Part shown: positions 21,123 through 56,498 of the stretch, piece by piece
Position numbering within the stretch: position 1 is the first letter of the stretch
Layout: each line of letters opens with the position of its first letter
Source: Bilabrum cf. latius
Taxonomy: Eukaryota
Length of the DNA stretch: 64,000 nucleotides
NCBI GenBank assembly: GCA_965178125.1
Contig: OZ237764.1
Span: 620,001-684,000 of the forward strand
Reading direction: 5' to 3'
Translations under genes and position numbers: made by a program
Notes under the pieces: model-generated
Seen by the model: the letters and a program-made list of their open reading frames with translations, nothing else
The model's database searches: none
What the model was told of the DNA's origin: nothing

Positions 21123-21175
21123 TTTTTGTATATATAAATAAGAGAAAAACTAAAACTTATATCAAACCTATAATA

Positions 21176-28644: not shown

Positions 28645-28715
28645 TTTTTTATATATACACTATAGATATAAATTTTTTAATATCTAAACATATTTTATAA
28701 TCTTCTATAATTTAT

Positions 28716-30581: not shown

Positions 30582-30589
30582 TTATATAT

Positions 30590-31660: not shown

Positions 31661-31752
31661 TATATATAATAATAAAATAAAATAAACCATTTATTCACAC
31701 GGGTTTAAAATATTAAGTTGGTTCCTTCTTCTATCCTTCCTCACAAAAAAAG

Positions 31753-32568: not shown

Positions 32569-32625
32569 TATATATTATAAGTATGGATAAATAACAAATT
32601 ATATATACCCAATATATACAATAAT

Positions 32626-33015
32626 ATGAGCGTTAAATAGAGCATAAATGATATGACAAATAAAAGCCTTCATCATCTTGGAATAAACAGAAATGATTAT
32701 AAAAAAGAAATTGATAAAATGGTTGAAGATACCGCAAACCAAATATTAAACGCAACCACAAAAGGAAAGACAAAAGGGGGAGCTGTAAACTTTCTTGGTG
32801 GATAGCCGAACGTTCTCGCTGGAGGTCCCAATTATCTCGCTGGAGGAAAAAAGAAGGGTTCAAAGAAAGCCCCTAAAGCTAAAAAGCCCCGTAGTGCTAA
32901 ATAGTTAAAGAGGGATAAATTAATGAAATGGTGCCGTCAAAAGGGAATGACAATGAAAGCCAGCAATGCTTTTATAAAGAAACACGACCTTATGAATAAG
33001 GATATTTCATTTTAA
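32626..33015 (+). CDS. Basic Gly-Gly-containing putative core protein
   Basis: Repeated LxGG motifs, Lys-rich, C-terminal RDKLMK..GMTMKASNAFIKKH similar to 50764-51003. Confidence 0.6.
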
Positions 33016-33092
33016 AAGACAGCCTACCAATTGACAAATTATCTCTTAAGTTTATAAATTATTAATTATATCATTAATAATATATATATACA

Positions 33093-35162: not shown

Positions 35163-35207
35163 TTAGTCTATAGGATAATAATATTTTGTTTTGTATAGAT
35201 ATATATA

Positions 35208-35825
35208 ATGGCAGAGTTAGTAGCAACAGCAAGCACGGTTGGTGGGGTGTTGGTTCCTCTAGGATATGCGGGATGCTTCCTTTGGAACTTATGTTCCTCA
35301 CTTGCGAATCGTAAAAAATTGTGTTTAGTCCTTCCACGAAAAGGAGGTAAAAGTTCACTTAACAAAAGTTTAACGTCTATAGACCCGAATATTCTATTAG
35401 TTGATTTAGATGAAGTCCTTAAAGTTAATGCTGACACCAAACAGGTCGTACATTTGAATGACGCCGAAGCTAGGGGCGACGTATCAACAGCCAAACTTTT
35501 AAAATTTGAGCTTATGAAAAAAAGCATTGAGAAAGTTAAATCAAATTGGTTATAGAAAGCAGAACATAGAGCCGTCTTTCTTACTTCAGATTTTGACCTA
35601 GCAAAAGAAATATTCAAGCCCTCCAGCGTGTGTGTAGCAATACCAAGCGATAAACTATACAGCAATATCTCTAAAGATTTAGACGAGAAGGATAAAGCAG
35701 TAGCTAGACATTCACGAGCTGAATTTTTGAAGAGCTTTAACCCTAATGAATATAGCGTATATAATACCTTTGAAGGGCTTTCATAGATGGTGATGAATGT
35801 CTATGGTCTTACATATAGGGTCTAA
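35208..35825 (+). CDS. P-loop protein with hydrophobic N-terminus
   Basis: LVLPRKGGKSSL, LLVDLDE; homologous to inner 45275-45892. Confidence 0.7.
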
Positions 35826-35861
35826 TTATTTGAATATTATTAAATAATAAATTAATAATAT

Positions 35862-37019
35862 TTATTTAGTCTTATTATTAAAATTATCCTTTAGGGTTTT
35901 TGATATATTTTTAGCCGGCTCCGTTGTTATCTTCCATTGAATTAAATATTCATCTTGTCCCTCTTTATTCTTTCTTCTCTTTATTATTTTACCTATATCA
36001 TTCTAATATTTTCTTTTAGTAGCCTCATCAACATATGAATCTTTCCATTTAACCCTGTATGTATTATTTTTATTCTTTCTTATCAATTTTTCAATTATAA
36101 ATATATCTTGTGCTTTATTCTCGTATGGTTTAGATGCTAATAACAACTAATCTCTATTAAAGTATGTATAGGGTATGCCCTCAATTTTATATAATGGGGG
36201 GTTATCTGGTTTTATTATTACTCTTTCAATTTTATAAGGCTTTACGCTATATTTAATATCTCCCGCCCTAAATGCTCCGGTTTCCTTTATCCCTTCTATA
36301 CTTCTAGGATAATCTAATCCTATTCTTACCATTTCGCCCTCATTTAATACATCACATACTTCACCCTAACATCTAGGCGGTATATATGGTAGATTCTCCC
36401 TTTTCTTATTCAACATTTCCTATCTTGTTTTATAACGCTCGTTTAATATCTCCCTCAACTTTGGTATTAAATGTCTCCAGTTCGTAATAGTTGTCCCCGT
36501 TCTTATCTCCTATGAATTCAAATAATAAAATATAGCTCTCCCTATTTCCTCATTCAATCTCTCCACCAAAGCCATCTACGATTTACGCTTCACTCTTGAA
36601 AATATATGCTCTATCTTATTCTTCTTTAGATATTCTTTAAATGATTCATTATCAAATTCTCCCCCTTTATCTGTTCGTATCATTTTAGGTTTCATTAAAT
36701 AATTTCTTTTATAGATTTTTTGAAAAGCTTTTATCACATCCTCCGCCCCTCTATCCTTTAACTCTTCAAAATCTAACGCTAATCCGCTAGTATCTATCAC
36801 AACTAATAAATATTTTGAATCGTTCTTGGTAGCGTAAGGGAGATACAATAAATCAGCCTATTGGATAAGCCCCTCTTTAGTAGGTTTATAATATTTAACA
36901 TAATTCAATCCTTTCGGTTTCTTTATCGGCTTCATTAAATCGTTCGTGATAGACTTCGTATTAAATCCAAAACTTGATTCATTAATATCATTATCTTTTT
37001 TCTTTCCTCTCTTACTCAT
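35862..37019 (-). CDS. rve (retroviral-type) integrase with C-terminal chromodomain-like segments
   Basis: Q*ADLLYLP, YLLVVID, IRTDKGGEF, ALVERLN (DDE); YRVKWK and YLIQWK..TEPAKNI. Confidence 0.9.
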
Positions 37020-37059
37020 TATATATATTAATTGATTTTAATATTTATAAATTAATTAT

Positions 37060-37431
37060 TCACGAATTAAAAAGCCTATTAATAGCTTCATTCGTTTTAA
37101 TGTGCTCCTTGGTGTCTCTTATCTCCTAATGGATATCAACCAGCTTTAATTTTTCTTTCTTAGTGAGTCCGTTCATCCTTCCTTTTAATGCTTTTAAAGT
37201 TTTCATATAAGGGGCTATAGCTTCTGCTTTCTTTTTGCTCACCTCTTTATATTCCACATTAAGAGCGGTTAATTTACTATTCACTTTATTTTTTAATTCT
37301 GTCTCTTTTATTTTTAGTTGCTTTAACTTTTGTTCTAATTCACGATTGGTCTTCTTAAAGTCTTCTACAATATCAAGAAATTCATTCTTTAACTTTGAGC
37401 GGGTATTAATCACTTTTTGTAATTTATCCAT
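37060..37431 (-). CDS. Coiled-coil hypothetical protein
   Basis: Lys/Glu/Leu-rich ORF extended across one TAG to TGA. Confidence 0.55.
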
Positions 37432-37596
37432 TTATATATAATTACTAGATATTTTTTTTATTTTTTTTAAACTATAGAATTTTATAAAACGGGTTTAATA
37501 AATTAAAATAAAATATTGGGCTACATTATAATATGTTCGTTAAGTTCCTGTTATCAAGTGTCAACGTTAAAAAGGTATTCCAGAATAAAAGCATCT

Positions 37597-38199
37597 GGGG
37601 GGGGACAACAGGTGGTGGTAGGTACACCAAGCGTTTAGGACGAGGGCTACGCTACGCTCGCCCCTCCTTTAAAGGCATATTTAGCAACTCAAGTGTTTCC
37701 CCTATAAACCTAAATGATTTCACAGGGGGTTCCCCAAGAACCCCTATAGAACCCCTCTATGTACCCATTTTCAGATATAAAATTTACTCCTACGAAGTAG
37801 GGGTAAATTGAAGAATTCTAATATTTAACCCCCTTATAAACTCTAACAGCAAAGACAGAGATGTTTTAGTAAAGTAGGAAAAAATGAAGAAATTAACCAA
37901 GTGTCCAAAATATCTCTGTGTTTGCTGTAGGAACGGAAGGATGAATTCCCAAGAGACCAAGAGACCAACCGAGGATTTCCCCAAGAGAACAAGGTATTTT
38001 ATCAAGAGACCGAGGTATGTTCCCAAGCGACAAACCGACAAACCGACCGATGAACCGACCAAGGATTTCCCAAGATGCTCGGGCTTTGCCCTCCGCTCTT
38101 TTGATATCTTTTTCAAAGATTGGATTTCCCAAGGATTTCCCAAGCGACTAAATTGTTCTCCGAAGCAACCAAACCGATTACCCAAGAGATGATACATTA
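37597..38199 (+). repeat. Left TIR of inner virophage
   Basis: Reverse complement of ~53541-54107 apart from a 47-bp insert and short-repeat copy differences; 38195-38300 also matches 53190-53295 inverted. Confidence 0.9.
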
Positions 38200-38341
38200 A
38201 AAGGAAAATAAAAAACAAATTATAATTGTTTTCCAATTAAAAACACAAAAATTGATTGAAAAATTTTGACAATATAGGATACAAAGAAATATTAAAATTA
38301 AGCAAGGAAAAGCATACCTCTATTAAAGAACTATATAGCAA

Positions 38342-39397
38342 ATGAGTAGCGCCTTTGAAAGAATATTACAATCCCTAAACATTTATCCCAACAGTCGTAT
38401 TGTAAATTTAATGAAACGACCAAAACGACCCAAAGGAGTAAATCGACCCCACGTAAATGTACCAGAACCTCACCAAGTGGTACAAATGGATTTATTATCA
38501 TTACCCCACGACAATAATTATAAATACGCATTAACTGCTATTGATTTACATACAAAGTAGGCCGATGCTGAACCGCTCAAAACCAAGCGTTAGAACGAAG
38601 TATTAAAGGCATCAAAAAAGATTTTCAATCGTGGTAATGTCCAGAAACCGCAGCACCGTTTGGAAATAGATAATGGAAAAGAATTTAACGCTTTACAAAG
38701 ATATTTAGAAGAGAGCGATGTATTTGTACGAAGAAATAAAGCAGGTCGCCACCGACAACAAGCATTAGTGGAAAACCTAAATAAAACGTTGGGAAAAGCC
38801 ATATTTACCCTATAGAACGTTAATGAGTTAAATACAGGTAATGAAAGCGTAGAATGGGTGGATATGCTTCCAAACATCATTGAAAACTATAATGAATATC
38901 AACTAGAAAAGTATATAGAAGAACCACCTTTACCCCCAGAACACTTCGACTTTACGTAGTGTAAAGGAGACGCTTGTAATATATTGGAAGAGGGTACAAG
39001 AGTTCGTATACCATTAGAAGAACCCAGAAAGGCTACAAATTTACAGCAAAAATTATCCGGAAATTTTCGTGCTTCAGATTTACGCTATAATCCAGAAATC
39101 AAAACGATAACTAAAGTATTACTAAGACCGAGACAACCACCCTTATATGTTGTGGATTAGGATGATTTAGTGGCTTATCCAAAAGAGGAATTACAGATTA
39201 TCGACTTTGATAATGAGGACAATAACCGAGATGCTCAGACAATCTTTCTGCCAAAAAAAATAAAATCCGAGAACGAAACAGAATATCAAATAGAATGGAA
39301 AGATTTTCCAGAACCAGAACATTGGACGTGGGAACCAAAGAATAAAATCCAAGAAATTGCTCCTAATTTAATTTTGGAGTGGGATATAGAAAATTGA
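38342..39397 (+). CDS. rve integrase with chromodomain (inner)
   Basis: VQMDLLSLP, YALTAID, LEIDNGKEF, QQALVENLN; YQIEWKDFPEPEHWTWEP. Confidence 0.9.
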
Positions 39398-39454
39398 GAT
39401 GCCCCGTATCGTACCTTAAGGATTATTTTCGTATTCTATAGTACAACAACAAAA

Positions 39455-41116
39455 ATGTCATTCACTCTGCCGACTAAAGCGTATTCGTCAAAAAGCCTTA
39501 TGGACCTATGTAATGCCGGAAAACAAGAGGAATGTATTCAATACCTTAGACAATACTTCTACCGCACCCACGAGCAAGGTGGCGGGGTGTATTTTCTAAT
39601 AGCATCTGAATTAAATCGGAATAACATAAGTGATGACGAACCCCAGAAACCAGTCTGGTAGTTCCTTACGAATAAAAATATTACTGAAAATTACCTGATT
39701 GGGGGACACTGTATTTACGCGATTGTGGGCAACAAAAGAGTAAAGACTTGGTCAGCACGAGACTGGTTCTTAAATGAGAATACCGACGTATTTACGATTG
39801 TAAGAAAATTTAATTCACCTACCGTGGATTACGACAATCAAACAATTAACGTTATGGGTTCACCTATACTTACACGGGAAAACTGTGGAAACATAGAGGA
39901 TTTATCCGAAGACGCAAAAGCAGGCGCGACTATGATTTATGAACATATCCAGAAGGTGTGGACTTCAGAAGACAAAGAATAGTGTGATTTTGTGATGAAA
40001 TGGTTGGCTCACGTTATTGTGGGCGGAAAGAAGTTGGGAACAGCACTATATTTGAAATCTCCACAAGGAACTGGTAAATCGATGATTATTACCTTCCTTA
40101 TGAGAAAACTACTCGGATATACCCTTACACTATAGACGCTTACACACAAGATGCTTCAACCCGACGCCTTCAACTCAATTCTGGACGGGAAACTATTAGT
40201 CAATTTTAATGAAATTCCAAAAGCCTCGCCAACTATTTGGGACGCCATGTAGGCAACACTAAGAAATCTTATTACGGAAAAACACTTTTCCTGTAATGAG
40301 AAGTTTGTCAAATCCGAAAGTCGTCCGAATACATTCAATCTAATTATTGATACGAATGATAGTCCAATCAAAATCACCGAGGAAATCCGTAGATATTGTG
40401 TTTTGGATGTGAATACATCAAAGAAAGGAGACAAAGAATACTTTACAACACTAAAACGTTTTACAGAAAATCCAGAAGTGGCTAAGGCATTTTATATGTT
40501 ATTGGTTGAAATCTATGATAAATCACCAGACTTTACAGGACAATTCGCACCAAAATCAAAGAATTTTTACAAAGGAATTCTTGATGGCGCACATCCGGTT
40601 TTAAAAATTCTAAAAGAAGAGTGGCTGGACGAAGGCAGAGATTTTAAAATGACAGTCTTGGAATTCCGCAATTATCTAAAGCAGGAACTGAACGGTAGAG
40701 TGAAGAACCTTGGTACACCTATGATTAAAACACTATTGTCAGAGGTAGGTGTTCATTCAACGATGAACAAATAGAGAAAACAAGAATTTAATGTGAAACA
40801 CGCAGACTTACTAAAAGGCTTCCAATCTAAATTTTAGGCACTTCGTCATTCTGCTGAGATGGAAAAAGCAAAATCCGAGGTAGATGTTCTTCGAGAGTAG
40901 ATTAGAGAACTACAGAAACAAGTCGCATAGCAGTAGGAAACGATTGAATAGTTGGAATTAGAAAAGGAGATTACACCGACGGAACAAGTCCATAAGAAAA
41001 TCCAGAAACAGCTGAGTGTTGAGAATAGCATCGCTATTCAAAAATGGATAAAAGAGAACCCACCAAAGAACAAAAAAGGAAAACTTTCCAAATTCCTCTG
41101 TAAAATTGAGAAGTGA
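39455..41116 (+). CDS. SF3 (D5-like) helicase (inner)
   Basis: Walker A KSPQGTGKS, LVNFNEI, NLIIDTN, IRRY; open across TAG to TGA. Confidence 0.85.
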
Positions 41117-41173
41117 GTGAGTTCGTACCTTAAGAATAATTATCGTATTCTATAATATAATAGATACTATAGA

Positions 41174-43015
41174 ATGCCCGAAATCGATTTTACGGAACCC
41201 CAAAGAACCAAATTGCGTCTTAATGGGAAACCAATATGGAGTATGCGATTTGAGAGCGAGGACCTTATCACCGTAAAAAATGTCTTGGAATTTATTCGTG
41301 ATTACGACGATGGTGGTGAAAATCCGTTTGATGACTTTAAATTTAAGGTGAATATCAATTACCAAGATACAGGTTGGCGAACACGAAGCACTTGGATTAC
41401 TACAGATGATTTAGAAAATCAAGATAGTTTATGGGCGGGCTACGAAGACGACGATGACGACGAATATAGAAAATTGAATTCTTTTGAACTACTGCTTATT
41501 AGAAAGCCAGAACCAGAAGGCGGTGCTGACGAACATAACGATTGTTTATATAACGCTATAAAACAGGCTTTTCCTTTTTCAGTTGGTCGTAAGGTAAATG
41601 TAAAGAGCGCAAAAGGCAAATGGAAAACTACTATTAAAAGATTGTCGAAGTCCGACCTCAAAGAACTCTTGAAAATTGGACGTGATGACCCCGTTGATTA
41701 CAGAAGAATACCAGAGATAGAAGACGAACTTCAAGTACGCATTCATGTTGTAGGCGACTTTGAATACACATCTGGAAAAACTCATTTTGACCGTCTTCTA
41801 ACTGTTTCATTAACAAATGGGCATTACAAGTATGTTCCCCCCATTAGTTAGAAAGAATTATTTACACCGCCGTCTAAAGAACCGTGTACGCTAATTACCC
41901 GCTTGTATCAATCCGAGAATTCTTATTTACTATTTGATGGAGACCGTGAGTATCAATCAGAAGGCATTACATCAGTTTCCAAGGATAAATTCATCTTTGA
42001 AGTCAAGTCCAAGGAAGAACTAAGAACAAAACACGAAGAACGGATGAAAAATGTAAGGGCATTAGCGAAGGAGACGGGTGGATATATGGATTTATCACGA
42101 TTTATGTTTAGAACATCCCTATTTGTAAAGTCGTATTTCAGTAAGTTTTCCAAACTTTACCCTGCCGACCCGATTGACCAAGTTGAAGCACTATGGATTT
42201 CTAAAGCCTCGGGTGGTGGATTGAATTGGGCAAACAAGAATACTACATTAAAAAACGCATACCAGTACGATATTAACTCATTTTATCCAAGTATTATGAA
42301 GGGTACATTTACATTTCCGGTTAGAAGGGGTAAGTTCGTAAAATTTGAAGTACCTTCAAGTGGTTTCTATCCGTACGGCATTTTTAGGGTACATATTGAA
42401 AATATCAATTCTAAATTGGTACAAAAAAGAAAAAACAATTATTATACCCAATATGACATTAACCGAGCGATTGAGACGGGCGCTTAGGTGTCTCTGATTG
42501 AAGACGGTGAAGCCAACGCTTTACTTTACGATGAGACAACAAGGGTGAAGGCAAATGGACTGTTCAAAACGATGATTGAGCGATTGTACGGTTATAAAAA
42601 ATAGGGATTGAAGTGTGCGAAGGAGATACTAAATAATATTTGGGGTTCTCTATGTTAGAAAAACACAATCACAAAAACACTCCGAGATGGTGATTGTATG
42701 AATTTTAGACAATTAAAGAACGCGTATCCTAAAGCATCTGGACGACTTGTATCGGGTATACTATATGACGAAGAGTACGATTACAAAACAGCCTACGCAA
42801 GAATGGGCCCCTTTCTGACTGGACTTGGACGAAGTAAATTGTCCAAAATGATTGAGCCATATCTTGAAAACATTCACTATGTCAACACGGATGGTTTCAT
42901 TAGTGAGAAAGAATTACCTCTAAAGTTATCAACGAACCTTGGGGGTATGAAGTTGGAGCAATCAGGTGAATGTCAAATTATTCACAGTAAGAAGAAAATT
43001 TTTAGAAAAGATTGA
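41174..43015 (+). CDS. Family-B DNA polymerase-like protein (613 aa, inner)
   Basis: YDINSFYPSIM, KEILNNIWGSL, YVNTDGF; three track ORFs in one frame. Confidence 0.85.
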
Positions 43016-43016
43016 A

Positions 43017-43289
43017 TTAAATAGTCTGCTTTTCCTTTAGTCTCTAAATTTCCTATCGCAAACTATCAAGTTCATCCATAATATTAATTTGTTCCCTTTT
43101 TGTGTCTTCCTCTTTTTGAAGCCAATCAAGGTGTTTTTTGGTTCTACAATGATGTGATTTATTGTACTTCTTATATACACCACCACAGGAACACTTTATC
43201 TATTCTCCAAGTTTTTCCTTGTTTTTCCGGTAGTATTCACGGGCATACAGCTTATCCTGTTCTTTTCTTTCTGAATGACTGAGTGTCAT
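43017..43289 (-). CDS. Small zinc-finger protein (inner)
   Basis: IKCSCGGVYKKYNKSHHCRTKKH. Confidence 0.7.
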
Positions 43290-43330
43290 TTTTGTATTCT
43301 ATAGTATTATACTATAGAGTTAGATTTAAG

Positions 43331-43972
43331 TCATACATTCTACCAAGCAATTTTTAGAGCATCACTTTTCCCATATCCTCTACCTCTTAACTACTGAGCG
43401 ATTTTCATTGCTAGTTTTGCTTTTGGGTTTTTCCGACGGCGCCTCCCTTTTCCAGTTTTTTGTGGTTTAAAACTCTACTTCGCTCTTTCGTTCGAGCCCC
43501 AATCAGGCACTTCACCACCCATTCGCATTACTCTAGCCTATCTCGATGATAATAGTTCTTTCTAACTATTTCCCTTCTCTCTAGCATCAAAAAATTCACG
43601 CATAGTATCTCTCCGTTCTGACGCATATTTTCTATGAATTGCCTAATTAAAATCATCAAGTGTTGTGTCGTGTTGCTCGTGTAGTGATGGTGATAAGAAT
43701 TTTAGTATACCCACGTCATAATCACCATCACTATCTTTGTCAATTCCTAGCGTATCAAATTCTTGTTCGGTCTTTTCGGCGAGCATTTCCATCATTTCCC
43801 TTTCCTAAGGGTTTACATATACACGATTAGCGTACTTTTCCCCTATACTCTAGTGCTTCCTCAATCCTTTCAAAATTGCTAGTGCTTGTCTAGCGTCTTT
43901 CCCCAAACTCTGATGTGGCTAACTAGCCAGTAAATGTAGTTGTTCTTCGGTATAATCATCAACACCCGCCAT
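43331..43972 (-). CDS. Hypothetical protein with basic C-terminus (inner)
   Basis: Open across TAG to TGA; tail LRGRGYGKSDALKIAW resembles LRGKGISKKTALK*AW of the adjacent gene. Confidence 0.6.
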
Positions 43973-43992
43973 TTACTATACACAATCATAAA

Positions 43993-45249
43993 TTAATCAT
44001 ACGCAAACATTTTCCAAGCCTACTTAAGTGCTGTCTTCTTGGATATTCCTTTTCCTCTTAAAATGGACGCCATTTTCATAACTCTTGAACGTTTTGTTTC
44101 ACACTGACATTGACCTCCAAATATTTCCAGATACATACCCGATACTGGGTCATTCGTATGCGAATGGATTTCTTTCATAATTGGTCTTCCAACTGTTTTA
44201 GTTGCTAAATCCCAACCTTCCTTAAAATCTTGTCCAAAATCCCTTTCTGTGTTCTACTTATGCTTTTCCTAATTTTTTCTTAAAGCGTTTCTTACATCTT
44301 CCGGTAAATCATCTAAACCTCTCCCGAACCATTTGGAAAAATACCCAGCCACATCAGTAGCAGCATTAGCCACTCTCTTAGTAAATCCCGATACGTTCTT
44401 AGCAATACTCTCTACATCCTACATAATAAATTGGTTTAAGGGTGGTGTCAAAAACCCATTTGTGCGTAGAACATCCTAAATGAACTTTTGACAATTCAAC
44501 GAGAAAGCACGATACTAATAAAAATTGTATTCTCCTATTTTCTGTAAAGTGGTTTCATATAATTCCCTTACTGTTTTCTAAGGTTTTCCATTAATATTTA
44601 CTTCCATAGTTTGTGTTTTCTTGTTGGTGGAAAATCTTGAGGACAAATTAACCCTCTCATTCTTCTCAAGATAAATCTTTTTTCCACCTCCAAGGTTCAA
44701 CTCTAAGGCTAAGTGAAAAAAATCATTATATCCGTGTTTATTTTTTAACTTTTTCATTTTTCCAAGGGTAATCCAGTTAAGCAACCGATTAATCGCGCCA
44801 CTAATGGGGGTTCTAATTACTTTCATAGCTATAATTGTTCTATCCCCGTATTGCTGTAGTGTTCTCTGGACTTCGTTTGAATTCCCATACACTACTCCAC
44901 CCTTAAGCTGTTGCGCCAGCTAACTGCGCCGAGAGGGGGTGCTTCGCAAACCATCTTTTAAATACTAATGAAGTGTGTTGGATTGTGTGGATTTCTTCTA
45001 GGATTTCTTTTTTGGTTTTCCTTTTGTTCCCACACCATCTTTAAGCTGTTGCGCCAGCTAACTGCGCCGAGAGGGGGTGCTTCGCACACCATCTTCAAAC
45101 TTAATTGCTTTTTCAAGGGCTTCTTTAGAATAAGGATGTTCACTTTTCCATGTCCTTGTTGTTTTACTCTTTGGTTCTTTGACACTAATGTACGTCTTAA
45201 CAAAACCAGAATTCATTTTTCCGCCACTAAGTGTATAAAAACTATCCAT
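43993..45249 (-). CDS. Protein with putative permuted papain-like domain (inner)
   Basis: FFHLAL..LEKN..Y*YRAFSLNCQKFI (His...NC order); one frame from 45249 across TAG to TAA. Confidence 0.55.
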
Positions 45250-45274
45250 TTAGTATAGGCTTGTATTAAAAAAC

Positions 45275-45892
45275 TCATAGACGACTTCCAAGACCGAAGG
45301 TTTTCCGGACGAATTCCTCCAGTTGCTAAAAGGATGAATAGACACAGTACTAACTCTAATGTAATCCAGCGATTAAATTCGTTCTTGAGCGTTCTACAGA
45401 CAATAAGTCCCCCGATTTTTTCCCTTCACGGATTTCCTCAAAAAGACTGTGAGAAGGCACACACACAAAAATTGAACTTTCCTTAAATAAATCTTTCGCT
45501 AATTCCAACGAACCAACCATAACAATTAAACGCCTGGATTTCTTTGTGAGCCAATCCGCTTTAATTTTTTCATACACTAATCTTGACTAAGAGTAATAAA
45601 AGAGACGGTGGGTGCTTTCATCACCATCAATTAGCATTTTCTCCATTTTCTATTTTTCCTACCCTGAAATCTAACCATTTACGCATTCATCTAAGTCAAT
45701 GACCAAAGTGTCTTTATCAACACTTTCTATAGAGCGACACAAAGTAGTTTTCCCAGAGCCTTTTGGAACAACCACGCAGGATTTCTGTTTCTAAGTTCCG
45801 TCTTTCGTCCACCAAGAATATAGACACCGACTACCAGAATACATTAAAGGAGCCAAAGTCCCAGCAACCATTACAGCAGATGATACTGACAT
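45275..45892 (-). CDS. P-loop protein with hydrophobic N-terminus (inner)
   Basis: VVVPKGSGKTTL, LVIDLDE; homolog of 35208-35825. Confidence 0.7.
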
Positions 45893-45947
45893 TGTTTTGA
45901 TATACTATATACCAAGACAAATATTTATTGGTTTACCCTTTTCATAC

Positions 45948-47714
45948 TCAAGCTTGGAGCATAGCGAGTAATTGATTGCGAGAGAGAGATTTACCACCTG
46001 TTAATCCAGAACCCAACTTGGCACCTGTTAAGCCCTTGCCTTTCTTGGTAGTTTTTCGGGGTTTCCTTTGGCGTCCCATACCAGCCATTTCACCCACCAT
46101 TTTAGCGGTGTCAAATACCTACTTACCATCCTTTAATACTTTTTTGAGATTGCCTTTCTTTACCCAATCAGCGGTTTTGTGTGCGAACTTTTTTAAGGCG
46201 TGTCTAATCTTTTTCCCAAGACCGCGACCGTGTAGTCCTGATAATTGACTTTCATATACTACGGGTAGTTTAGAGGCGGAAAGAACATCTGCCCGTGAGA
46301 TGACACCCTGCTAATACTCAATCTTAGAACCATCAATCACATTCATTACTCCTTCGTACAATCCCACAACCACACACTACACATTTTGGTAATCTACAAC
46401 ATCATTATTCTTCACTCGTAGGGTGATAGACAATTGGTTAGAGCCGTTGCTTCCATTTGTCTAATCTACATCTAGGCTCAAATCCTTGGCGGGGTCGATG
46501 GAGAGAATTGCGCCTGATAGCACCCTATCCCCGAATTTACGCATAGCCCATTCCGCGTATTGCTATTCAAGTCCATTGCTTCTGGATAAGTCCCATAGCT
46601 ACTGAGGTGAAGCATCTGCGAGTAATCCACTTTGGTTATTCATCTCAATAGATATTCCCTCAATTCCAAGGAATGTGTTTCCCTAATCTACTGAGACGCT
46701 GGTAGGTGAGCGACGGGCAAACACAAATAGACGAGATGGAACTGAATTGCTAAGTTTAATATTGTTGTTCGTAAGAGTTGCTGTTGTTCCTGCGCTGATT
46801 GTTGCACCATAGCTTTGAGTATATGAAGTCATTTCAAAAATATCATAGGATACCTGTTTTGGAAGGACAAACCCTGTTTTAGGGGTAATCTATTCAAGGT
46901 ATAAATAGGGGTTCTGGACATCTACCGACTAAACGGTAGCAGTTAAGTCCTATTGTGGAATACGAGACCACACGGTTCTACTCAGTTGCGACCAATTGAT
47001 ATCCAAGGAAAGAGTTTCTAAACCGAAAATGGCTGGTTGTTCCTATTTACTTTCGTAATGGAAAGGTGGGCAAAGAACCGCCTCAGTACATTCAAAGACA
47101 AGAACACGATTTTGCGTTTGACCTGCGGGCACTGGAGTGTTATCCATTTGAACCAAGTTATAAAATCCACTTCCTCTTGCGGGTTGGTCCTAAAGCACGT
47201 CCTCATACGAAGCAAGAGCGTTATTTGTAGCCTAACTCATCATCGCGTATGAAGGCACATTGTCGCGTCTATACACACTATCAAGGCAATTCACACGATG
47301 AACATCATCATCTAAACAATGGGACACTACGTCCATTATTTCCGCGTTATTCTAAGTAAAGCGAATGTTATTGATACCAACTGTCTGTGTTGCAATGGAG
47401 CGATTAAGTGGATATGAGCGTGGAGCATCGTAATCTGGTGTAAATGGTACGAGAGCACCTGCGGTTTGATTATTCACGGAAAAGGTAATGGAAAAACGGC
47501 AAGACACGTATGCGCGGCGGCATAAACCTACACCTGAAGGCATACTAATATTCCAATTCACACCTGAATTATAATTACCGGCTGAACCAGATGGAGCGTA
47601 TCTGCGAAACGTTCGGTTCTCATAACCTTCTTGAACTTCATAAGGCTTTGGTTGTACGTCTAATGTTGCGGGAGATACTTTGACTGGCTGAAGGGCAAAT
47701 GTATTCAATGACAT
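45948..47714 (-). CDS. Major capsid protein (588 aa, inner)
   Basis: DAPRSYPL, SVPSRLFVFARR, Gly-rich basic tail (GKGLTGAKLGSGLTGGK); follows penton. Confidence 0.85.
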
Positions 47715-47792
47715 TTTTGTTTTCCTTGTATATTATATACAACGAATAAAATTCTATGGGGTCGCGTCCCCATCCGACGAATTATCATTTTT

Positions 47793-48908
47793 TCAAAGTC
47801 CTTTCCGTTTCTTAAATAAAAACTTCACACTCACACTTCCGTGGCGTAAATAAAGAGGTCTTAGATTTGAATAATTGTCTTTCCAATATAGATTAAACTA
47901 AATCCTATCTACTGAATGTGTATCTAAAAAATCAATTTCGTGGAGAATATGGGGCTGGTATTGAAGAACCTGCTAATTAACTGTTTCAGTATCATCTAAT
48001 ACACAATCCATATCCACTAATAAACTCTCGGTCCCTGAACCTGAATTTTGAACTGTATTAGTGGATTGTCCATAGGCGGATTTCTAGGATATTGCCTCAC
48101 TCCTCACTGGAAGACTTGAAGATGTGAAAACTATTCCGCGAAAAATCTAAAACTACACTAAACTCCCTCGTTCCTAGGTCATCATTAATCTGTAGTCTCC
48201 CGTTGGGTTTCCCTCGAAGTATGCCTAAGGTTCATATTTTCCAACAGAAGAGCCATCATCGAATAAAACATTGGTTCCTAGGGTTTTGAATAGAATACTG
48301 GCGTATAAGTCGTCATCTTGGATATCCATTCGTTCCATAGGAAAACCCGTCATCAGTTCGTTAAGGGCTTCATTCAACACTAATTTAAATTTCTGTCCTG
48401 AGTTTTCCTCGTCGTAATCGGGGTTTGCTACTAAACTGAACTTTCCATCTTTAAAGAGTAAAACCGGAACTGATGTAATATCCGCTGATAAAGCATTCTA
48501 TATGGTTTCGTTGAATAAATCAACAAAATGCTACACGGAATACATATAATAATAAGGAACAAACTACATAGGATTGGAAAAAGATGGTTGGTTTTCCCCT
48601 GTTAACTAGGGTCTCCACTGAATGCTTGAGGTCCACAAACTTACTCCGTCTTCATCTGTAATGCTTATTCTATACACCGTTTGATTAGGATTTGAAGATG
48701 GATTTTTCACTTTATCGGTTTCTATGTGTGGAACCCATAAAGGTATTGAATTGGTGCTTATGGAAAACCGGAATACTGACATCGTATAATCACCAACATC
48801 CTTATCTAATAATGGCTACTTGCGGGTTTCGCTATAGGTCGCTGGTTGGAAAGTATCTTCGTTATTTCGTATGTTTGCGGTAATGTAAAATCGGTCTGGA
48901 GAACTCAT
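47793..48908 (-). CDS. Penton/minor capsid protein (371 aa, inner)
   Basis: ATYSETRK*PLLD..DYDVSIFRFSI; YWKD..PLYL..SVKFLFKK. Confidence 0.85.
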
Positions 48909-48964
48909 TTTACTATAGACGTTTATAATTATGGGGTGGGTTTGATTACTTTTCTAAAGTATAA

Positions 48965-49456
48965 TTAAGATGGTGTAATAAGTGAACCTGACACTAAGGA
49001 TTTCCAACTAGATGTAGAAGAACTGCCAATCGCCACATAGACATCGTTGTCGCTTCCATTATACACTAAAGCGCCCTTGAACTTTCGCTCTGCTGACGTA
49101 TTAATAGGGGTAGAAGCGTCAGCCAATGTAGCTCCAGCAACCTCACTCAGCCCAACAACACCCTCTTGAGAAGTCTTGAATGAACCAACTAGTGAAATAT
49201 CGCATCTTTCTCCTTCTTCGCTCATACTGAACTGACAACCAGCAGACGCTCCGTTTTTTCCAAACCGTAGAACAGTTTCACCCCACTCCATATAAGGCTC
49301 TCCGTCTTTGAATTCAATACTTGGATTGCCTATGACTGCTCCCGTAGAGTTAGTAATTGCGGACACTTTAATTGCGTCGCTACTCACAACATTACACGTA
49401 ATAGTTTGAGACATAAGGTCTAGACTGTTCTTAGATAGAAGATTTGAGACTGACAT
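48965..49456 (-). CDS. Putative fibre/spike-like protein (inner)
   Basis: N-terminal/central similarity to 20601-21122 with a different C-terminus. Confidence 0.5.
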   Translation of the reverse strand: MSVSNLLSKNSLDLMSQTITCNVVSSDAIKVSAITNSTGAVIGNPSIEFKDGEPYMEWGETVLRFGKNGASAGCQFSMSEEGERCDISLVGSFKTSQEGVVGLSEVAGATLADASTPINTSAERKFKGALVYNGSDNDVYVAIGSSSTSSWKSLVSGSLITPS

Positions 49457-49521
49457 TTTATAGTATATCCACAGATATAATTTTTATCAGGTTGCCAAAA
49501 GATGTATATAAGAGGTTTTGG

Positions 49522-50703
49522 TCAATCTTTTCCTAAAAGATGTAATAGTTCCATAGCAACCTAATGATGAATATTTTTAGTGCTTCCTTTTACTTTCTTG
49601 GCTACATTCATTGCTGTATCATAGATAATTCTTTTTCCACCTGTTAATCCTTTCCCCTTTTTTGGTTTTCCACTTTCTCCTACAGTCATTGCGCGTGATG
49701 GTGGGTCTTCTAAATCAGGCTACTACATTCCATAGGGCGGACTAAACCCCGTAAATCGCTACACAGGTCTAGTAGCACGTTTTCCAATTCCCTGCTCAAT
49801 TTCCATCCTACTCGGCATATCATAGTACTCACCAGTTTCTGGGTCCCACGCCCCCGGAGTGCTTCCTTGCGGTAGTGGTCTTTCATTGCTCGCTGCGGCT
49901 AATATGGCATCTAAGTCTTTTGATGTTTTTGACGCATTACTACTTGAACCCTCTTGAAAATGCTAAAACATATTTGTCTGCCCCTGTGATGTTCTTTGTG
50001 AGAAATTCTTTCCCTATTCTAAATCCCACGCTATTCGTTGTTTTTCAGTTAAGGGTCTGTCTTGTTGTATTCTTTCTCTGGCTCTTTCCAATAACTATTT
50101 ATACGCACCCGAAGACCTTTTTGGAAGCTGTACTTGTGTTGGAGCGGAAAACGTGTTTCTTCTTGTTGTTCGAGCAGGTGTTTGTAAAGATGTTGGCTAC
50201 TAATCAATTCCCAACATTCCCTACGGTATTCGTTGTCCGGATGCCTCCTATATAACTTTCCCTAATTCTAAGAGTTGTTTTCTATCCTCAGCTGGAACTC
50301 TCTGCAGTCCTTCGTATCCTTTCCTTTGAAACCTCTCTATGTTAACGTATTGACGGGCGAGTTGTTGCTTCATTTGTGGAGACATATTGATATTACCAAC
50401 AAAATCCTTCAATGCTTTCACTGCTGGACTTACATTTTTACCCTCAATAATACCTTTCATTATACCAGATATTGACTTAGATATGATTTCCTCGTTGCTT
50501 TGGTCTGCCTATTTTCTCTACGCTGGAGTTCCATACCTTCCACTTTCTTTTAATCGTTCAATTTTTGCCCTTTTCCTTATAAAATCACTATATTCTGTTT
50601 CTAAATCTACGTCGTCTCTTGCCTATAAATCTAACATTTTAGCATTGTCCAGTTCCCTCTCTAGGGCTTGCTGAATAAGAGCATTCACTTTAGCAGTTTT
50701 CAT
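49522..50703 (-). CDS. Hypothetical protein (393 aa, inner)
   Basis: Contains track ORF 50248-50460; appears open across TAG to TGA. Confidence 0.6.
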
Positions 50704-50763
50704 TTACTATAAGCTTTTATAAAAAGCTTGGCCAAAAAATAAATTATGTTCATGTATAGTATA

Positions 50764-51003
50764 ATGGATATTGATAAGTGGATTATATAGAGAACCAAAC
50801 AACTCGCGCTATAGAAAGAACAAGACGCTTTAAATAGAGTTAAAAACAAACATATTAAAGTTGGAAAAGGCCGTAGTAAGCCTAAGCGGAAAGTGAGCGC
50901 CAAAATGAAACGCCGCAATAAACTTGTAAAAATGGTGATGTAGTAGACTGGTATGAGTTTACCTCAAGCAAGTCGGTATATACGAGAATAGAATATTATT
51001 TAA
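50764..51003 (+). CDS. Small basic putative core protein (inner)
   Basis: RRNKLVKMVM**TGMSLPQASRYIRE; similar to the C-terminus of 32626-33015. Confidence 0.6.
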
Positions 51004-51032
51004 AGAAACTTTTAGAAAAAGTTTGACCAAAA

Positions 51033-51935
51033 TTACATAAGGTAAGCCTACTTTTCTCCTAATAAATACCTCGGGTAATTCCTGTGGACACATACCCACC
51101 TAGAAGGCATTTTTAAGACTTTAGAGATTTCTTGTTTCTCAAGTCCTATATAATTTTTTAGTAAATACCTTAGAGAATGTGCGGAAGAACACTAAGGGAA
51201 TATAACGAACTTATGACTTTCCGCAAGAATAATTCGGGTACTTTTATAGTTGGTAGATAAATGACTTGTGATTAATACAGAAGTATTTGAATGTCTTCCA
51301 ACCTATAATATTTCATCCTGTAAATGATTGAGGGCTTCCCTTAACTTCTTATCTTTGATTGTATCAATATCATCCAAGATTACTAAGGCGTCCCTTAATT
51401 CCTAATGAATATCAATCGGGTTCTCCACCAGTTCCTCATTTAAAATAATCCTTTTCAGTCCTTTCACTTCATCTAAGACTTTATCCTACTATACTCGTGA
51501 AAATAAAATAATTCTCCTGTTTGGAAACATTCTATGATAATTCTTAGCATACTTGGAAACCCAAGTAGACTTCCCAGCACCTGATGGTGCGGTGATATAT
51601 ATTACCTCTCTTCCGTTTAAATTTGGTAATGATTGGAATTCACCCTATTTTAATGTAATCTCTTTATGTTTCTTTTCCTATGCTTTTTCATACAAGTATT
51701 TGATGTCTTCGTCTAGGGGTTCGACCTGTTTGATTAAGTGTCGTGCTAATAAATCCATTTTCCTCTGCGGAAATCGTTTCCCTGTAAGTGATGATACTTG
51801 AAAATCCTAAAATGACATACTATCATCTCCAAATTGGTTGTCTGTGTTTTCCGCCGTGTATAAAATACGTTTTCCGTGAGTGTCATATGCGATGGGTGTT
51901 GATTTTGTAGTTTCCTTCCAAGAAAAATGAGCCAT
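51033..51935 (-). CDS. Packaging ATPase (inner)
   Basis: YITAPSGAGKST, LVILDDID, IGRH. Confidence 0.9.
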
Positions 51936-52124
51936 TTTAGTGTATTTACTATATGTTTTTATTTTTTCTAAAGTGTTTTGTCTTTTTGTTGAAAACTTAT
52001 TTTGAATGATTGTCTTTTATGCTATCCACAAATTCCAAAACGGATTTTGTAGAAATACTTCTACGCTTAAATAGTGGTTAAGAGAATTCATCTCCCCCAA
52101 TATATGTTTCTATAATAAATATAT

Positions 52125-52661
52125 ATGGATTATGCTCTTAGCGATAGTGATATTCGTGTTCTCCTCCAAACTCCACCAAATATTAAGGGGTTTCTTCCTA
52201 CGTCGGTAAACATCGTTCCATATACAGAATTAGGATAGTACAATAGTATTGATGGATTATTTAGTCGTTGTAATTGTTGTATCATTCTATACCAAGAAGA
52301 AATAAATTCTGGACACTGGGTGTGCTTATTTAAGCGTAATAAAACAATATACTTCTTTGACAGTTATGGAATTCGTCCTGATAGGCAATAGCACACAATG
52401 AGTGAAAGCGTGCGGAAACGTTTTTATGAAGACCCTGAGTTAATATATTTAATGTATCATTCTCCGTATAAGATTGACTATAACCCATATTAGTTTTAGG
52501 CGGATGGAATGGATATAGCAACCTGCGGGAGACATTGTATAGTTCGTCTTTGGAATAGGGGAAAAAACGCTGATTAGTATAAAAAGTGGGTGGATAAGGT
52601 TTGTAAGAAACATACATTAAATCCTGATGAATTAGTGTATTTATTGACGTGTCATTTATGA
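52125..52661 (+). CDS. Maturation cysteine protease (inner)
   Basis: SGHWVCL, FFDSYG, YNPY*F*ADGMDIATCGRHC. Confidence 0.9.
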
Positions 52662-52940
52662 ACTCCAAAGGTAAAAATGTGAGAAGAACTTTGGGGTTCT
52701 TGGTTTTACTTCGATACCGTGTCGTTTGAAGTATCTAAATTGGCGGTCCGTATCTAAATGATTTAAATGGCTGTAATACCCTATTCTATCGTAAAATTGC
52801 TAATACCGCCTATCACCAAACGATGTAATATATTCATCATTTTCGTCAAAAACATCATACTTCTTATTCTTGCGTCTTGAGGGTGCTTTAAATAGAAAAT
52901 TCTCAACAACCTTTTCAAAATCGTAGGTATGTAGCTTCAT
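52656..52940 (-). CDS. Conserved small virophage/NCLDV-type protein (inner)
   Basis: SRRKNKKY..SFGDRRY*QF..YFKRH..PKFFSHFYLW; matches the C-terminal domain of 21176-21883. Confidence 0.65.
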
Positions 52941-53540
52941 AAGTACTTTATAGTATAGTCTTCTACTTATATCAAAGCCCGAGCTTCTTGTATTCCTTTA
53001 GTTTTTCGTGTAATTTTTTCCAAATACGTGGATTAATTTGCTTGACAATATGCTCTATCATCAACTCCTTTAAAAATGGGTTCATTTACTATAGTGATAT
53101 AGAATGGTCTTAATTATCATCTCTTGGGAAATCCAATCTTTGAAAAAGATATCAAAAGAGCGGAGGGCAAAGCCCGAGCATCTTGGAAAATTAATTTTAA
53201 TATTTCTTTGTATCCTATATTGTCAAAATTTTTCAATCAATTTTTGTGTTTTTAATTGGAAAACAATTATAATTTGTTTTTTATTTTCCTTTTAATTTTT
53301 ATGGTGGCATCATAGGAATTACAACATTTAATTTTAATCTTTGAAAAAGATATCAAAAGAGCGGAGGGCAAAGCCCGAGCATCTTGGGAACTTAATTTAT
53401 TTTTTCTAAGTCTCTTATAATTGACCTGTAAAATCTCTCAATTTTAATCTTTGAAAAAGATATCAAAAGAGCGGAGGGCAAAGCCCGAGCATCTTGGGGG
53501 ACTTTTCCAAAGGGACTTAAAATACGTTTTCGTTTTCCTT

Positions 53541-54107
53541 ATAATGTATCATCTCTTGGGTAATCGGTTTGGTTGCTTCGGAGAACAATTTAGTCGCTTG
53601 GGAAATCCTTGGGAAATCCTTGGGAAATCCTTGGTCGGTTCATCGGTCGGTTCATCGGTCGGTTTATCGGTTTGTCGCTTGGGAACATACCTCGGTCTCT
53701 TGATAAAATACCTTGTTCTCTTGGGGAAATCCTCGGTTGGTCTCTTGGTCTCTTGGGAATTCATCCTTCCGTTCCTACAGCAAACACAGAGATATTTTGG
53801 ACACTTGGTTAATTTCTTCATTTTTTCCTACTTTACTAAAACATCTCTGTCTTTGCTGTTAGAGTTTATAAGGGGGTTAAATATTAGAATTCTTCAATTT
53901 ACCCCTACTTCGTAGGAGTAAATTTTATATCTGAAAATGGGTACATAGAGGGGTTCTATAGGGGTTCTTGGGGAACCCCCTGTGAAATCATTTAGGTTTA
54001 TAGGGGAAACACTTGAGTTGCTAAATATGCCTTTAAAGGAGGGGCGAGCGTAGCGTAGCCCTCGTCCTAAACGCTTGGTGTACCTACCACCACCTGTTGT
54101 CCCCCCC
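53541..54107 (-). repeat. Right TIR of inner virophage
   Basis: Inverted copy of 37597-38199. Confidence 0.9.
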
Positions 54108-54512
54108 CATCTCCACTTTTATGTCAATCGTATATATTTATGTTGAGAAGCACAAACCATCAATGTTAAAGCATTTTCAACTTGATGACCTTCGTGTCCC
54201 TCCAGATTGTAATGAACGACTTAAAAAAAGAGTATTAAGTGAATTTGAAGAAATTGATTATATATCATATTTCGTTCAACCATTTAGAATAATACACAAG
54301 CTAAATGAAGAAAATGTTGAATGCCTAAGTGAAGACTTAAATGATACCGTAGCCATAGATTTATTGGTTAAAAAAGAGAAGGAAGCCATTGAGAAATCAA
54401 TAAAGAAATAGAAGGATGACATCATCAAAAAGGCTATAGATGACTTTATCTTACCCAAGGATTAAACTATATATTAATAATAATAATAATAGTATTATTA
54501 AAATTCAAAAAT

Positions 54513-54860
54513 TTATTCTAAAAACTCAATATCAAACCATTCATTTGAATCATCATATTCTTCAGCATACATCAACGATAATTCTATATACTCTTCTAAT
54601 TCACTATTAGTAAGGTTATCAATTTCTTCTTCTTTCAATAGTTTGAAATCGGTTCCGTTGTCATCATTAAAACTTTCAACTTGACTTTCTGCTTCCTTTT
54701 TATATTCTTCTTTCCAATTATCATTCCATACAACTCTCTTCGCTTGGTCTTTTAAAGTGTCAGTATAAAGCTTTTGTGCTTCTTCCTTATTATTAAACTT
54801 TTTAACCCAGTGTGTATGATAACATTCACTACCCCACGCTAATGATACAATATAAACCAT
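54513..54860 (-). CDS. Acidic hypothetical protein (outer)
   Basis: 115-aa ORF, ATG to TAA, AT-rich leader like neighbouring genes. Confidence 0.6.
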   Translation of the reverse strand: MVYIVSLAWGSECYHTHWVKKFNNKEEAQKLYTDTLKDQAKRVVWNDNWKEEYKKEAESQVESFNDDNGTDFKLLKEEEIDNLTNSELEEYIELSLMYAEEYDDSNEWFDIEFLE

Positions 54861-54901
54861 ATCTATAATAATTAAAAGTAAAATAATTATTATAATAAAA
54901 C

Positions 54902-56002
54902 TTAATTAAAATTATCCTCTATCTCTTCTCGCTCCTCGTTATCCAATACCCATTCTAATCTTGGAGGGTGCCACGCTCTAGCTATTAACTCCTCTTTATA
55001 CTTCTTGGTTTGTTCTATTGTTTTATCTTTTCTTTTTTTATAATATGGTATCAGTGTTGTGGAATAATCAATTCTAATATCATTAATTCCATTTTCTAGA
55101 TGGTTAAGCGAGGTACAATCGTAAAATATATAATAATCCATATCATCAACATTACTTAAATCCCAATTGTTCAATGGTTGATTGAATGATTTACAATTAC
55201 TAAACATTTCACCCATACTGTTAACTTTAGAAACATTCCAATTATTCAGTGGTTGATTAAACTTTACACATTCTCTAAACATACCATACATATTGTTCAC
55301 ATTTGAAACATTCCAATTATTCAGTGGCTAATTGAATGATTCACAGTTATGAAATAAAACACTCATATTTTTCACATATGAAACGTCCCAATCGTTCAGG
55401 GGTTGATTAAATGAATCACAATCAAAAAATAAACCTTCCATATCAAAAACACTAGACACATCCCAATCAGTCAATGGTTGATTAAATAGTTTACAGTATC
55501 TAAACATAAAATTATTTTTTTTTACATTTGAAACGTTCCAATTATTCAGTGGTTGATTGAATGATTTACAATATTCAAACATCCCAGACATACCCCAAAC
55601 ATTTGAAACATTCCAAGTATTAAGTGGTTGATTAAATAGTTTACAATATTTAAACATACCACTCATAGTCTCAACATTTGAAACATCCCAATTATTAAGT
55701 GATTGATTAAATGACTTACACCCAAGGAACATAAAAGCCATATTTTCTACGTTTGAAACATCCCAAGTATTCAAAGGTTCATTAAATTTTTTCTTATATC
55801 TAAATAAAGCACTCATATCTGTAATAAATGTTGTTACTATTTCACAAGGCTTCTTATCTTTTAATAAATCTTTTAAATGGTCTTTACACCTTGCTATGTA
55901 ATAGGTTTGACCTTCAAAATAGACGTTCCAGTTTATCCTTCTATAATAATCTTTCGGTTGTGTAGCTTTCAAGGTTCCATTTTCCCATTTTAATAATTCC
56001 AT
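54902..56002 (-). CDS. DUF285/BspA-like repeat protein (outer)
   Basis: Tandem 25-aa FNQPLNxWxVSxVxxMxxMF repeats; two track ORFs joined by one TAG at 55328-55330. Confidence 0.9.
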
Positions 56003-56072
56003 TCTGTATATACCTATAATAAATATATTTTTTAAGTCAATTTAAACGCTCTATAACAATTTAAAAATAAAA

Positions 56073-56498
56073 GCGCGTTTGTTCCATTTGTGAAGGTATA
56101 AGCGAGGATAAGGGGGTATAATGAAGGTAGTTTAGAAGGTTGAATAATGGAGTCCCATAAAGTGATGGAACTTTTGGCTAGAAAATGGCTAGAGTCCCAT
56201 AACACCTTCACAAGAGGGCTACATCCACGTTTTGATTAGAACTTACTATAATATATACCCAAAGTATGGATATGGTCATCGTATAGAGTTTTATATATAA
56301 TTGATTTTATATAATTAGAAGGATAAAGCAGTTATATGAAGTAGCAGTATGAAGAGGCTCACCTTGACTTTTGGAGCGACTAGCGAGAAAAGGAATGGAG
56401 AGAGGGAAGAGCTTTAGCTCTGACTGAACGTAATTATTGATGATGTTAATCATCCTTAACCGAAGGGAATAAATTTATTTATTACCGTAGCGGGGGGG
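56073..56498 (-). repeat. Right TIR of outer virophage
   Basis: Inverted copy of 9110-9531. Confidence 0.95.

Follow-up and report, generated by a model that had tools for sequence, protein, structure and literature searches.

Under the standard genetic code, the last gene of an endogenous virophage, which codes for a protein of DUF285 repeats, is interrupted by a single in-frame TAG. Is this codon a lesion in a decaying provirus or a sense codon and, if the latter, which amino acid does it specify and does the code belong to the virus or to its host? We addressed these questions in a stretch of 64,000 nucleotides (hereinafter the window; G000:C30:620001-684000 of a 48.6-Mb eukaryotic assembly), along with host genes and related elements elsewhere in the same assembly.

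A TAG codon in the glutamine slot of a repeat array

The gene and the codon concerned are:

54902..56002, minus strand: DUF285 repeat gene, 366 amino acids, nine 25-residue repeats (PF03382, E=2e-128)
55328..55330, minus strand: in-frame TAG at codon 225 of this gene, decoded as Gln

On the plus strand, 55328-55330 is CTA, and the minus strand accordingly has TAG at 55330-55328. The frame opens with an ATG at 56002, continues for 141 codons beyond the TAG and closes with a TAA at 54902; when translated with TAG as Gln, its product scores 421.7 bits against the Pfam DUF285 model (cut-off 25). The nine 75-bp repeats extend from 55786 to about 55112, and the gene is the last one ahead of the terminal inverted repeat at the right end of the outer of two nested virophages. 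The first-pass annotation had reported a TAG in the Gln slot of this array, and the observation is real: the codon lies in repeat 7. Likewise, its description of the sister repeats bears counting. Repeat 1 has FNEPL, with GAA in the slot, while seven repeats have FNQ(P/S)L, all with CAA, and in the codon-level alignment the TAG of repeat 7 (FN-TAG-PL) sits where those seven have their CAA. The repeats run on in frame after the TAG, as had been stated, with no sign of decay: the mean amino acid identity to the sister repeats is 57% for repeat 7 and 59% for repeat 8, as against 52-63% for repeats 1-6. Repeat 9 has a lower value (46%) because it grades into the C-terminal tail, whose sequence (ARAWHP..RL.WVLD) is kept in paralogs.

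A comparison with other copies of the element, also proposed in that annotation, recovered on the C27 contig a second insertion of the outer element, whose DUF285 protein is identical down to the same TAG; hence, the TAG is not an assembly error. Two runs from different samples and studies, X2 and X5, yield short-read contigs that span the site with 0 differences, the X5 contig at a depth of 2; one of the samples may be the source of the assembly itself. A contig from run X1 covers it with one difference and no variant listed at the TAG, and X6 has no coverage there.

The further claim that the repeats identify the amino acid without any database stands only in part: glutamine is the right meaning, but this one codon is not its proof. 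The slot takes Glu in repeat 1, and in 160 repeats from seven outside viral DUF285 loci it is occupied by Gly in 58, Gln in 55, Lys in 21 and Glu in 11. Across 66 slots in distinct paralog frames of this genome we counted 57 CAA, 8 GAA and the 1 TAG. As a single codon is weak evidence, we tested the code across the element and the host, and it is these element-wide and host-wide sequence comparisons that argue for TAG as Gln. The DUF285 genes form a family in other elements of the assembly (L003-L020), in which 3-9 repeats were matched, often with two genes in tandem and with 1-5 in-frame TAG codons each.

Two nested virophages

The window contains one virophage inserted within another, with the following features:

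9110..56498, unstranded: outer endogenous virophage, terminal inverted repeats of ~390-430 bp, 5-bp target-site duplication TCGCA
10945..13656, plus strand: outer primase-helicase-like gene, 903 amino acids, 19 TAG (Prim-Pol, PriCT_2)
13658..20130, unstranded: GC-rich insert of 6.5 kb within the outer element, with a 284-bp unit present 17 times
26755..31690, minus strand: outer morphogenesis block with major capsid protein (8 TAG), penton, protease-like protein and P-loop ATPase
35862..37019, minus strand: outer rve integrase with chromodomain, 7 TAG
37597..54107, unstranded: inner endogenous virophage, 16.5 kb, own terminal repeats, 5-bp duplication CATCT
38342..43015, plus strand: inner replication and integration block with rve integrase and chromodomain, DUF5906 helicase-like protein and protein-primed polymerase B (Pfam)
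45948..47714, minus strand: inner major capsid protein, 588 amino acids, 14 TAG (Sputnik_MCP_1st 1.9e-22, MCP_V20_C 2.2e-27)
47793..48908, minus strand: inner penton (minor capsid protein), 12 TAG (V18-19, 1.1e-10)
51033..51935, minus strand: inner P-loop ATPase with a probable packaging role, 9 TAG (AAA_22 9e-6, under the curated cut-off)
52125..52661, plus strand: inner maturation-protease-like gene, TCG cysteine motif, with the Gln nine residues upstream coded by TAG

The outer element is AT-rich and spans 47 kb as integrated, or ~24 kb minus its two inserts. Both the inner virophage and the array of 284-bp units are absent at that site from the C27 copy, which identifies them as insertions. 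The 284-bp units are 98% identical, and a scan of a single frame of this insert yielded no Pfam domain and no retrotransposon domain. At a separate site, the C27 copy carries a GC-rich insert of its own, ~6.6 kb long and unlike this one. The inverted repeats of the inner element (53123-53680 and 37960-38301) include short tandem repeats (11-21 bp) and match one another in four separate blocks. The host flanks at 4790-5938 and 59336-60487 are copies of a tandem gene block that includes a thioredoxin-like gene, placing the element within a duplicated host array.

Genes for a virophage-type capsid protein, a V18-19 penton, rve integrase, P-loop ATPase and protease-like protein are present in both elements. 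Their capsid proteins are only ~20% identical, indicating distantly related elements. In PDB searches, the inner capsid protein matched Sputnik V20 (3e-30) and entry 6g45 (2e-8), which we take to be the mavirus capsid protein. The outer capsid protein has a weak Pfam match (E=0.004) and groups among the retrieved capsid homologs. The ATPase and protease of the outer element were called by sequence motifs and have no Pfam match. The protease motifs of both elements match those of outside virophage proteases; neither protease has a Pfam match, and the PDB search gave spurious WD40 matches only. The class Maveriviricetes is delimited by a virophage capsid protein and by an ATPase and a cysteine protease recognised through established HMMs, with a penton and a length of 15-45 kb expected though not required, in the description of PMC9952930; V18-19 pentons are present in both elements, and their lengths of ~24 kb and 16.5 kb lie within this range.

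TAG as a glutamine codon in the virophage genes

In the 38,360 AT-rich bases of the window, open reading frames cover a fraction of 0.27 under the standard code, which rises to 0.87 when TAG is read through (0.04 in shuffled sequences). Reading through TGA gives 0.32 (shuffles 0.04) and TAA 0.46 (shuffles 0.23). A joint read-through of TAA and TAG attained 0.96 and was rejected as the shuffles already reach 0.77. From 53 frames we selected 34 viral genes, leaving out antisense and GC-rich frames; these contain 192 TAG, 276 CAA and 62 CAG codons, with at least one TAG in 29 of the 34, and they end in TAA (20) or TGA (14), never in TAG. The 22 genes counted in the outer virophage contribute 91 TAG, 173 CAA and 19 CAG codons with 17 TAA and 5 TGA stops, and the 12 of the inner one 101 TAG, 103 CAA and 43 CAG codons with 9 TGA and 3 TAA stops. 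The last 30 codons of the viral genes hold 15 TAG against 17.4 expected, amounting to neither an excess nor a gap at the gene ends.

Several comparisons point to glutamine as the residue. Among ten copies of the capsid gene, TAG swaps with CAG in 12 columns and with CAA in 7; no other codon takes its place in more than 2. In a comparison with TAG-free sister genes, TAG lies opposite Gln at 11 of 22 positions and CAA at 37 of 62. A metagenomic protein of 95% identity has Gln at all four of the TAG positions that it spans; this fragment comes with no stated translation code and begins just past another TAG position, as expected of a gene called under the standard code. Finally, the Gln located nine residues ahead of the TCG motif of the protease, presumably the oxyanion-hole residue by analogy with adenain, is coded by CAA in all five recovered outside virophage proteases and in a relative (L184), and by TAG in both window elements.

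These data also bear on whether the TAG instead marks decay of the provirus by nonsense mutation, or separates two genes. The standard code does give two open reading frames here, 55328-56002 and 54902-55300, and the outer element does bear insertions. However, the interruptions in the viral genes are nearly all of one codon type, and no new TAA or TGA has arisen between the two diverged copies of the outer element, even though they differ by 111 synonymous and 61 non-synonymous changes over 5,854 codons. Moreover, a change from CAA to TAG takes two substitutions, the one-step nonsense codon from CAA being TAA. Some DUF285 paralogs have TAG at other positions, in some cases near codon 26, and the host genes considered below (Prp8, dyneins and eRF1) have the same kind of in-frame TAG. 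We hence consider decay or a split gene exceedingly improbable; the separate translation of 54902-55300, named at the outset as the outcome that would overturn the glutamine reading, is disfavoured both by the cover restored on read-through and by the host genes. By these sequence criteria, the TAG at 55328 is an ordinary glutamine codon rather than a nonsense mutation, within a gene predicted to make one protein of 366 residues. The codon could have arisen by a neutral path from CAA through CAG to TAG.

The recoding belongs to the host nucleus

In-frame TAG codons are also found in host eRF1, Prp8, chaperonins and dyneins. In 19 dynein frames, every one of which contains TAG, together with Prp8, we counted 276 TAG in 62,943 codons, 174 of which fall in alignment columns with at least 20 homologs. 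Where outside homologs conserve a column at 90% or more, TAG lies opposite Gln in 29 of 48 cases, closely comparable to CAA (36/55) and CAG (382/620); in conserved columns, GAA lies opposite Glu in 86 of 120 cases and TAT opposite Tyr in 64 of 85. The 19 conserved-column TAG that lie opposite other residues (6 of them Glu) occur at the same rate as seen for CAA and CAG. The residue profile of the host TAG has a correlation of 0.98 with that of the Gln codons and of 0.47 with that of Glu, and TAG is statistically indistinguishable from CAR (p=0.88) and distinct from GAR (p=2e-25). In CCT-eta, too, a TAG lies opposite Gln.

As for termination, all 13 host gene ends that could be defined by homologs are TGA (10) or TAA (3) with no TAG, a small sample drawn from 13 of 20 genes in which one end rests on 2 matches. 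Nine chaperonin tails end in TGA, one of them with a TAG five codons ahead of it. With in-frame TAG facing Gln, and ends in TAA or TGA, in the genes of the host itself, the recoding is seated in the host, and the viruses conform to it. The first-pass annotation overlooked this seat of the code in the nucleus of the eukaryotic host rather than in the element. On the strength of these alignments, UAG almost certainly encodes Gln in both host and virus. Host nuclear translation would thus read UAG as Gln and keep UAA and UGA as stops, and the integrated virophages, being translated on host ribosomes, would write some of their Gln codons as TAG.

One might instead suppose that the viruses alone are recoded, by a suppressor tRNA of their own or of a giant virus, in a host with the standard code. 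TAG does make up 32-41% of the Gln codons in the two elements, in contrast to ~9% in the sampled host genes (276/2,957). This gap, however, follows base composition, as host dyneins with low GC3 reach 47 TAG. The presence of TAG in every dynein frame, the lack of any tRNA gene in the window and the chromosomal tRNA described below likewise speak against a purely viral code, whose probability we regard as practically negligible.

A candidate decoding tRNA and the release factor

A tRNA gene with the anticodon CUA is located at G000:C23:907607-907679 (L022:1501-1573; 69.8 bits as a tRNA), in GC-rich host chromosomal DNA ~12 kb from a CCT gene. A pattern search for CUA tRNAs recovered this gene and a mitochondrial tRNA-Arg only. 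It is thus the one nuclear tRNA(CUA) found, in a survey that scored 63 of 780 first-look tRNA candidates with patterns that would miss intron-bearing copies. A second CUA-like match, on C13, was discarded, being a tRNA by neither ARAGORN nor Rfam. In its sequence, the C23 gene is a mosaic of tRNA-Tyr and tRNA-Gln. It agrees with tRNA-Tyr(GUA) at 12 of 14 positions of the acceptor stem, including the C1-G72 pair, and at 8 of 10 of the anticodon stem, as against at most 6/14 and 6/10 with either tRNA-Gln. Conversely, its D-stem is that of tRNA-Gln(UUG) (8/8), and it shares G73 with tRNA-Gln where tRNA-Tyr has A73. Separately, two nuclear tRNA-Ile genes have the anticodon GAT (L028, L064), which is uncommon in eukaryotes, and no tRNA-Ile(AAT) occurred among the 48 tRNA matches examined.

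The Tyr-like acceptor and anticodon stems of this tRNA raise the alternative that UAG is a sense codon for Tyr, or partly for Gln and partly for Tyr; similarly, Glu is the second commonest residue opposite TAG and might be taken for its meaning. Yet Glu is likewise second opposite CAA and CAG, and Tyr is outside the ten commonest residues opposite the host TAG, even though TAT does face Tyr in most conserved columns. The D-stem and G73 of the tRNA, too, are those of tRNA-Gln(UUG). Any of these meanings is very improbable. Since TAG does not lie opposite Tyr in the alignments, we infer that the tRNA(CUA) is charged with Gln, possibly after an identity switch.

The host eRF1 (L090:2050-3921, G000:C35) retains GTS, E55 and S70. 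It shows the change N30D, has TAVNIKS in place of TASNIKS and has YMCDSHF in place of YLCDNKF. The T32G change known from Iotanema is not present; it is peculiar to that lineage and no part of the definition of the code. The eRF1 gene itself has two in-frame TAG codons, one opposite human Q44 and the other at position 69, which is Gln in PDB 8ip8 and Leu in human and yeast. One of the two is the last codon of an exon. As the retained GTS, E55 and S70 could still allow UAG recognition, and as one chaperonin has a TAG shortly before its TGA, UAG might be ambiguous in the manner of Condylostoma, with Gln within genes and a stop near transcript ends; alternatively, UAG might be edited to CAG in the mRNA. 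Nevertheless, none of the 13 homolog-defined host ends is a TAG and, at the ends of the viral genes, TAG is not depleted, and mRNA editing becomes unnecessary given a cognate tRNA. We judge both ambiguity and editing highly improbable. Under the unambiguous reading of UAG as Gln, eRF1 would have lost the recognition of UAG.

The host lineage

The best named match of the dyneins is Cantina marsupialis (62%), followed by oomycetes and ochrophytes (~56%). In a quick tree of Prp8, the host joins, on a long branch, a TSA record with the prefix GECG (SH-aLRT 93), which may be from Halocafeteria. A 38-kb mitochondrial contig encodes a tRNA(UCA) and an atp1-like gene. A Cox1 search gave environmental sequences (94% and 89%), which do not point to a named lineage. 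A mitochondrial tRNA(UCA) has been reported for Cafileria and Cafeteria (PMC6723347, PMC6972860). From the best matches and the long-branch quick tree, we consider the host very likely to be a heterotrophic stramenopile and, with lesser confidence, probably a bicosoecid or another bikosian. The main 18S rRNA array, on C12, is short (~1,700 nt). A second and very different 18S rRNA gene is present on L051 (G000:C95:6099-7900); to us it appears dinoflagellate-like, and it probably comes from a contaminant or prey.

TAG-free and TAG-using virophages in one genome

In addition to those in the window, the assembly contains virophages that make next to no use of TAG:

G000:C1:619000-637000 (L145, L146), C36 (L148, L149), C40 (L150, L151) and C9:381001-391000 (L142): TAG-free or nearly TAG-free virophages, 0-1 TAG in ~3,000-4,800 codons each

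In the stretches fetched, the elements on C1, C36 and C40 have 0 TAG against 161, 115 and 119 CAR codons, respectively, and the one on C9 has 1 TAG against 109. In a close sister on C37 (L153, L154), however, we counted 46 TAG against 130 CAR codons, or a quarter of its Gln codons (C1 versus C37, p=7e-15). That no gene of the TAG-free elements stops at TAG is uninformative since just 4 of 62 genes of outside virophages end in TAG. A capsid gene at the top score is found at eight loci of the genome, the inner element of the window included. A quick capsid tree of 58 rows places the TAG-using proteins in four separate positions among outside homologs; it derives from an unfinished search, has some open forks and includes outside proteins with no stated code. 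Single-protein scans of IMG/VR and of metagenome contigs recovered no locus for close relatives of the inner capsid and ATPase, and a profile scan recovered 8 distant IMG/VR virophage loci, to which the standard code fits, with TAG read-through gaining at most 0.03 in ORF cover. Thus, no free TAG-recoded virophage contig was found in these scans.

These patterns fit a history in which viral lineages took up TAG separately after entering the host lineage, although the direction and timing are themselves inferred. The TAG-free elements may be recent arrivals or may have been kept readable in both codes. A fuller scenario, which we advance only tentatively and rate below even chances, is that a stramenopile flagellate evolved UAG as Gln independently, via a suppressor tRNA built on a tRNA-Tyr body and switched to Gln, without the eRF1 change of Iotanema. 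Virophages would then arrive TAG-free, with genes legible to any host, and several of their lineages would separately gain TAG in a one-way adaptation, extending even to the conserved protease Gln. If true, the gain of TAG would confine these virophages to hosts in which UAG encodes Gln, and the same would hold by extension for their helper giant viruses.

Relationship to known recoded systems

Nuclear codes that split UAG from UAA are described as rare, the instances listed coming from ciliates and from a single fornicate, a single rhizarian and a single green alga. UAG as Gln with UAA kept as a stop has been reported for Iotanema spirale, with a predicted tRNA derived from tRNA-Gln(CUG) and with T32G in eRF1 (PMC5304391, PMC9161772), and for the ciliates Hartmannula sinica, Trochilia petrani and Protocruzia tuzeti, with no suppressor tRNA in the two studied (PMC11687900). 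As far as these accounts describe them, the codon has the same meaning there as here and UAA is still a stop; in contrast, the present host is of an unrelated, stramenopile-like lineage, has an identifiable tRNA(CUA) gene with Tyr-like stems, and keeps the GTS of eRF1 that T32G alters in Iotanema.

Among viruses, the closest parallel we encountered is with the endogenous viruses of Streblomastix strix, which use the TAA/TAG=Gln code of their host (PMC10120064) and are thus likewise integrated DNA viruses sharing a non-standard host code. That case, as reported, involves coupled TAA and TAG and a Metamonada capsid cluster, unlike the present one with TAG alone, virophages, and TAG-using and TAG-free elements side by side. 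Further comparators are the endogenous mavirus-like elements of Cafeteria burkhardae, with GC-rich inserts (PMC8547959), and the class Maveriviricetes, with a provirophage reported from Caecitellus (PMC9952930). By the published descriptions, the window elements resemble these in being AT-rich, 15-45 kb long and resident in GC-rich host DNA. Terminal inverted repeats, target-site duplications of a few bases and GC-rich inserts are likewise shared, as are genes for an rve integrase, a virophage capsid protein and a penton, along with ATPase and protease-like genes called by motifs. The window elements differ in a capsid nearer to Sputnik V20 than to entry 6g45, in the nesting of one virophage in another, in requiring TAG as Gln, and in an insert that is an array of 284-bp units. 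TAG as Gln (code 15) also occurs in crAss-like and other phages, where it is predicted to differ from the host code (PMC9523058); here, the virus matches a recoded host and there is no tRNA gene in the window. One ochre tRNA has been reported in a virophage (PMC6905037). Some giant-virus genomes annotate better with other codes, and all giant-virus isolates are said to come from standard-code hosts (PMC13524828).

The words 'genetic code' and 'codon' are absent from the available text of a preprint on a bicosoecid genome (10.64898/2026.06.25.734631), and the only mention of codes in a review of stramenopiles (PMC11412368) is in the title of a reference. The literature searched, to which most subscription journals are external such that an earlier report is possible, has no stramenopile nuclear reassignment of UAG and no virophage recoded for UAG only. 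As far as searched, then, the type of code is known, and what is new is the lineage, the pairing of a Tyr-like suppressor tRNA with an eRF1 that retains GTS, and the coexistence of recoded with TAG-free virophages. Because the candidate decoding tRNA and eRF1 are both in the assembly, the reading of UAG with UAA as a stop is directly testable. In practical terms, standard annotation would fragment the genes of such a host and miscall its viruses as degraded. More generally, virophages that differ in their adoption of TAG within one genome, from none through a quarter to as much as 41% of Gln codons, present a natural test of whether the genetic code limits the host range of eukaryotic viruses.
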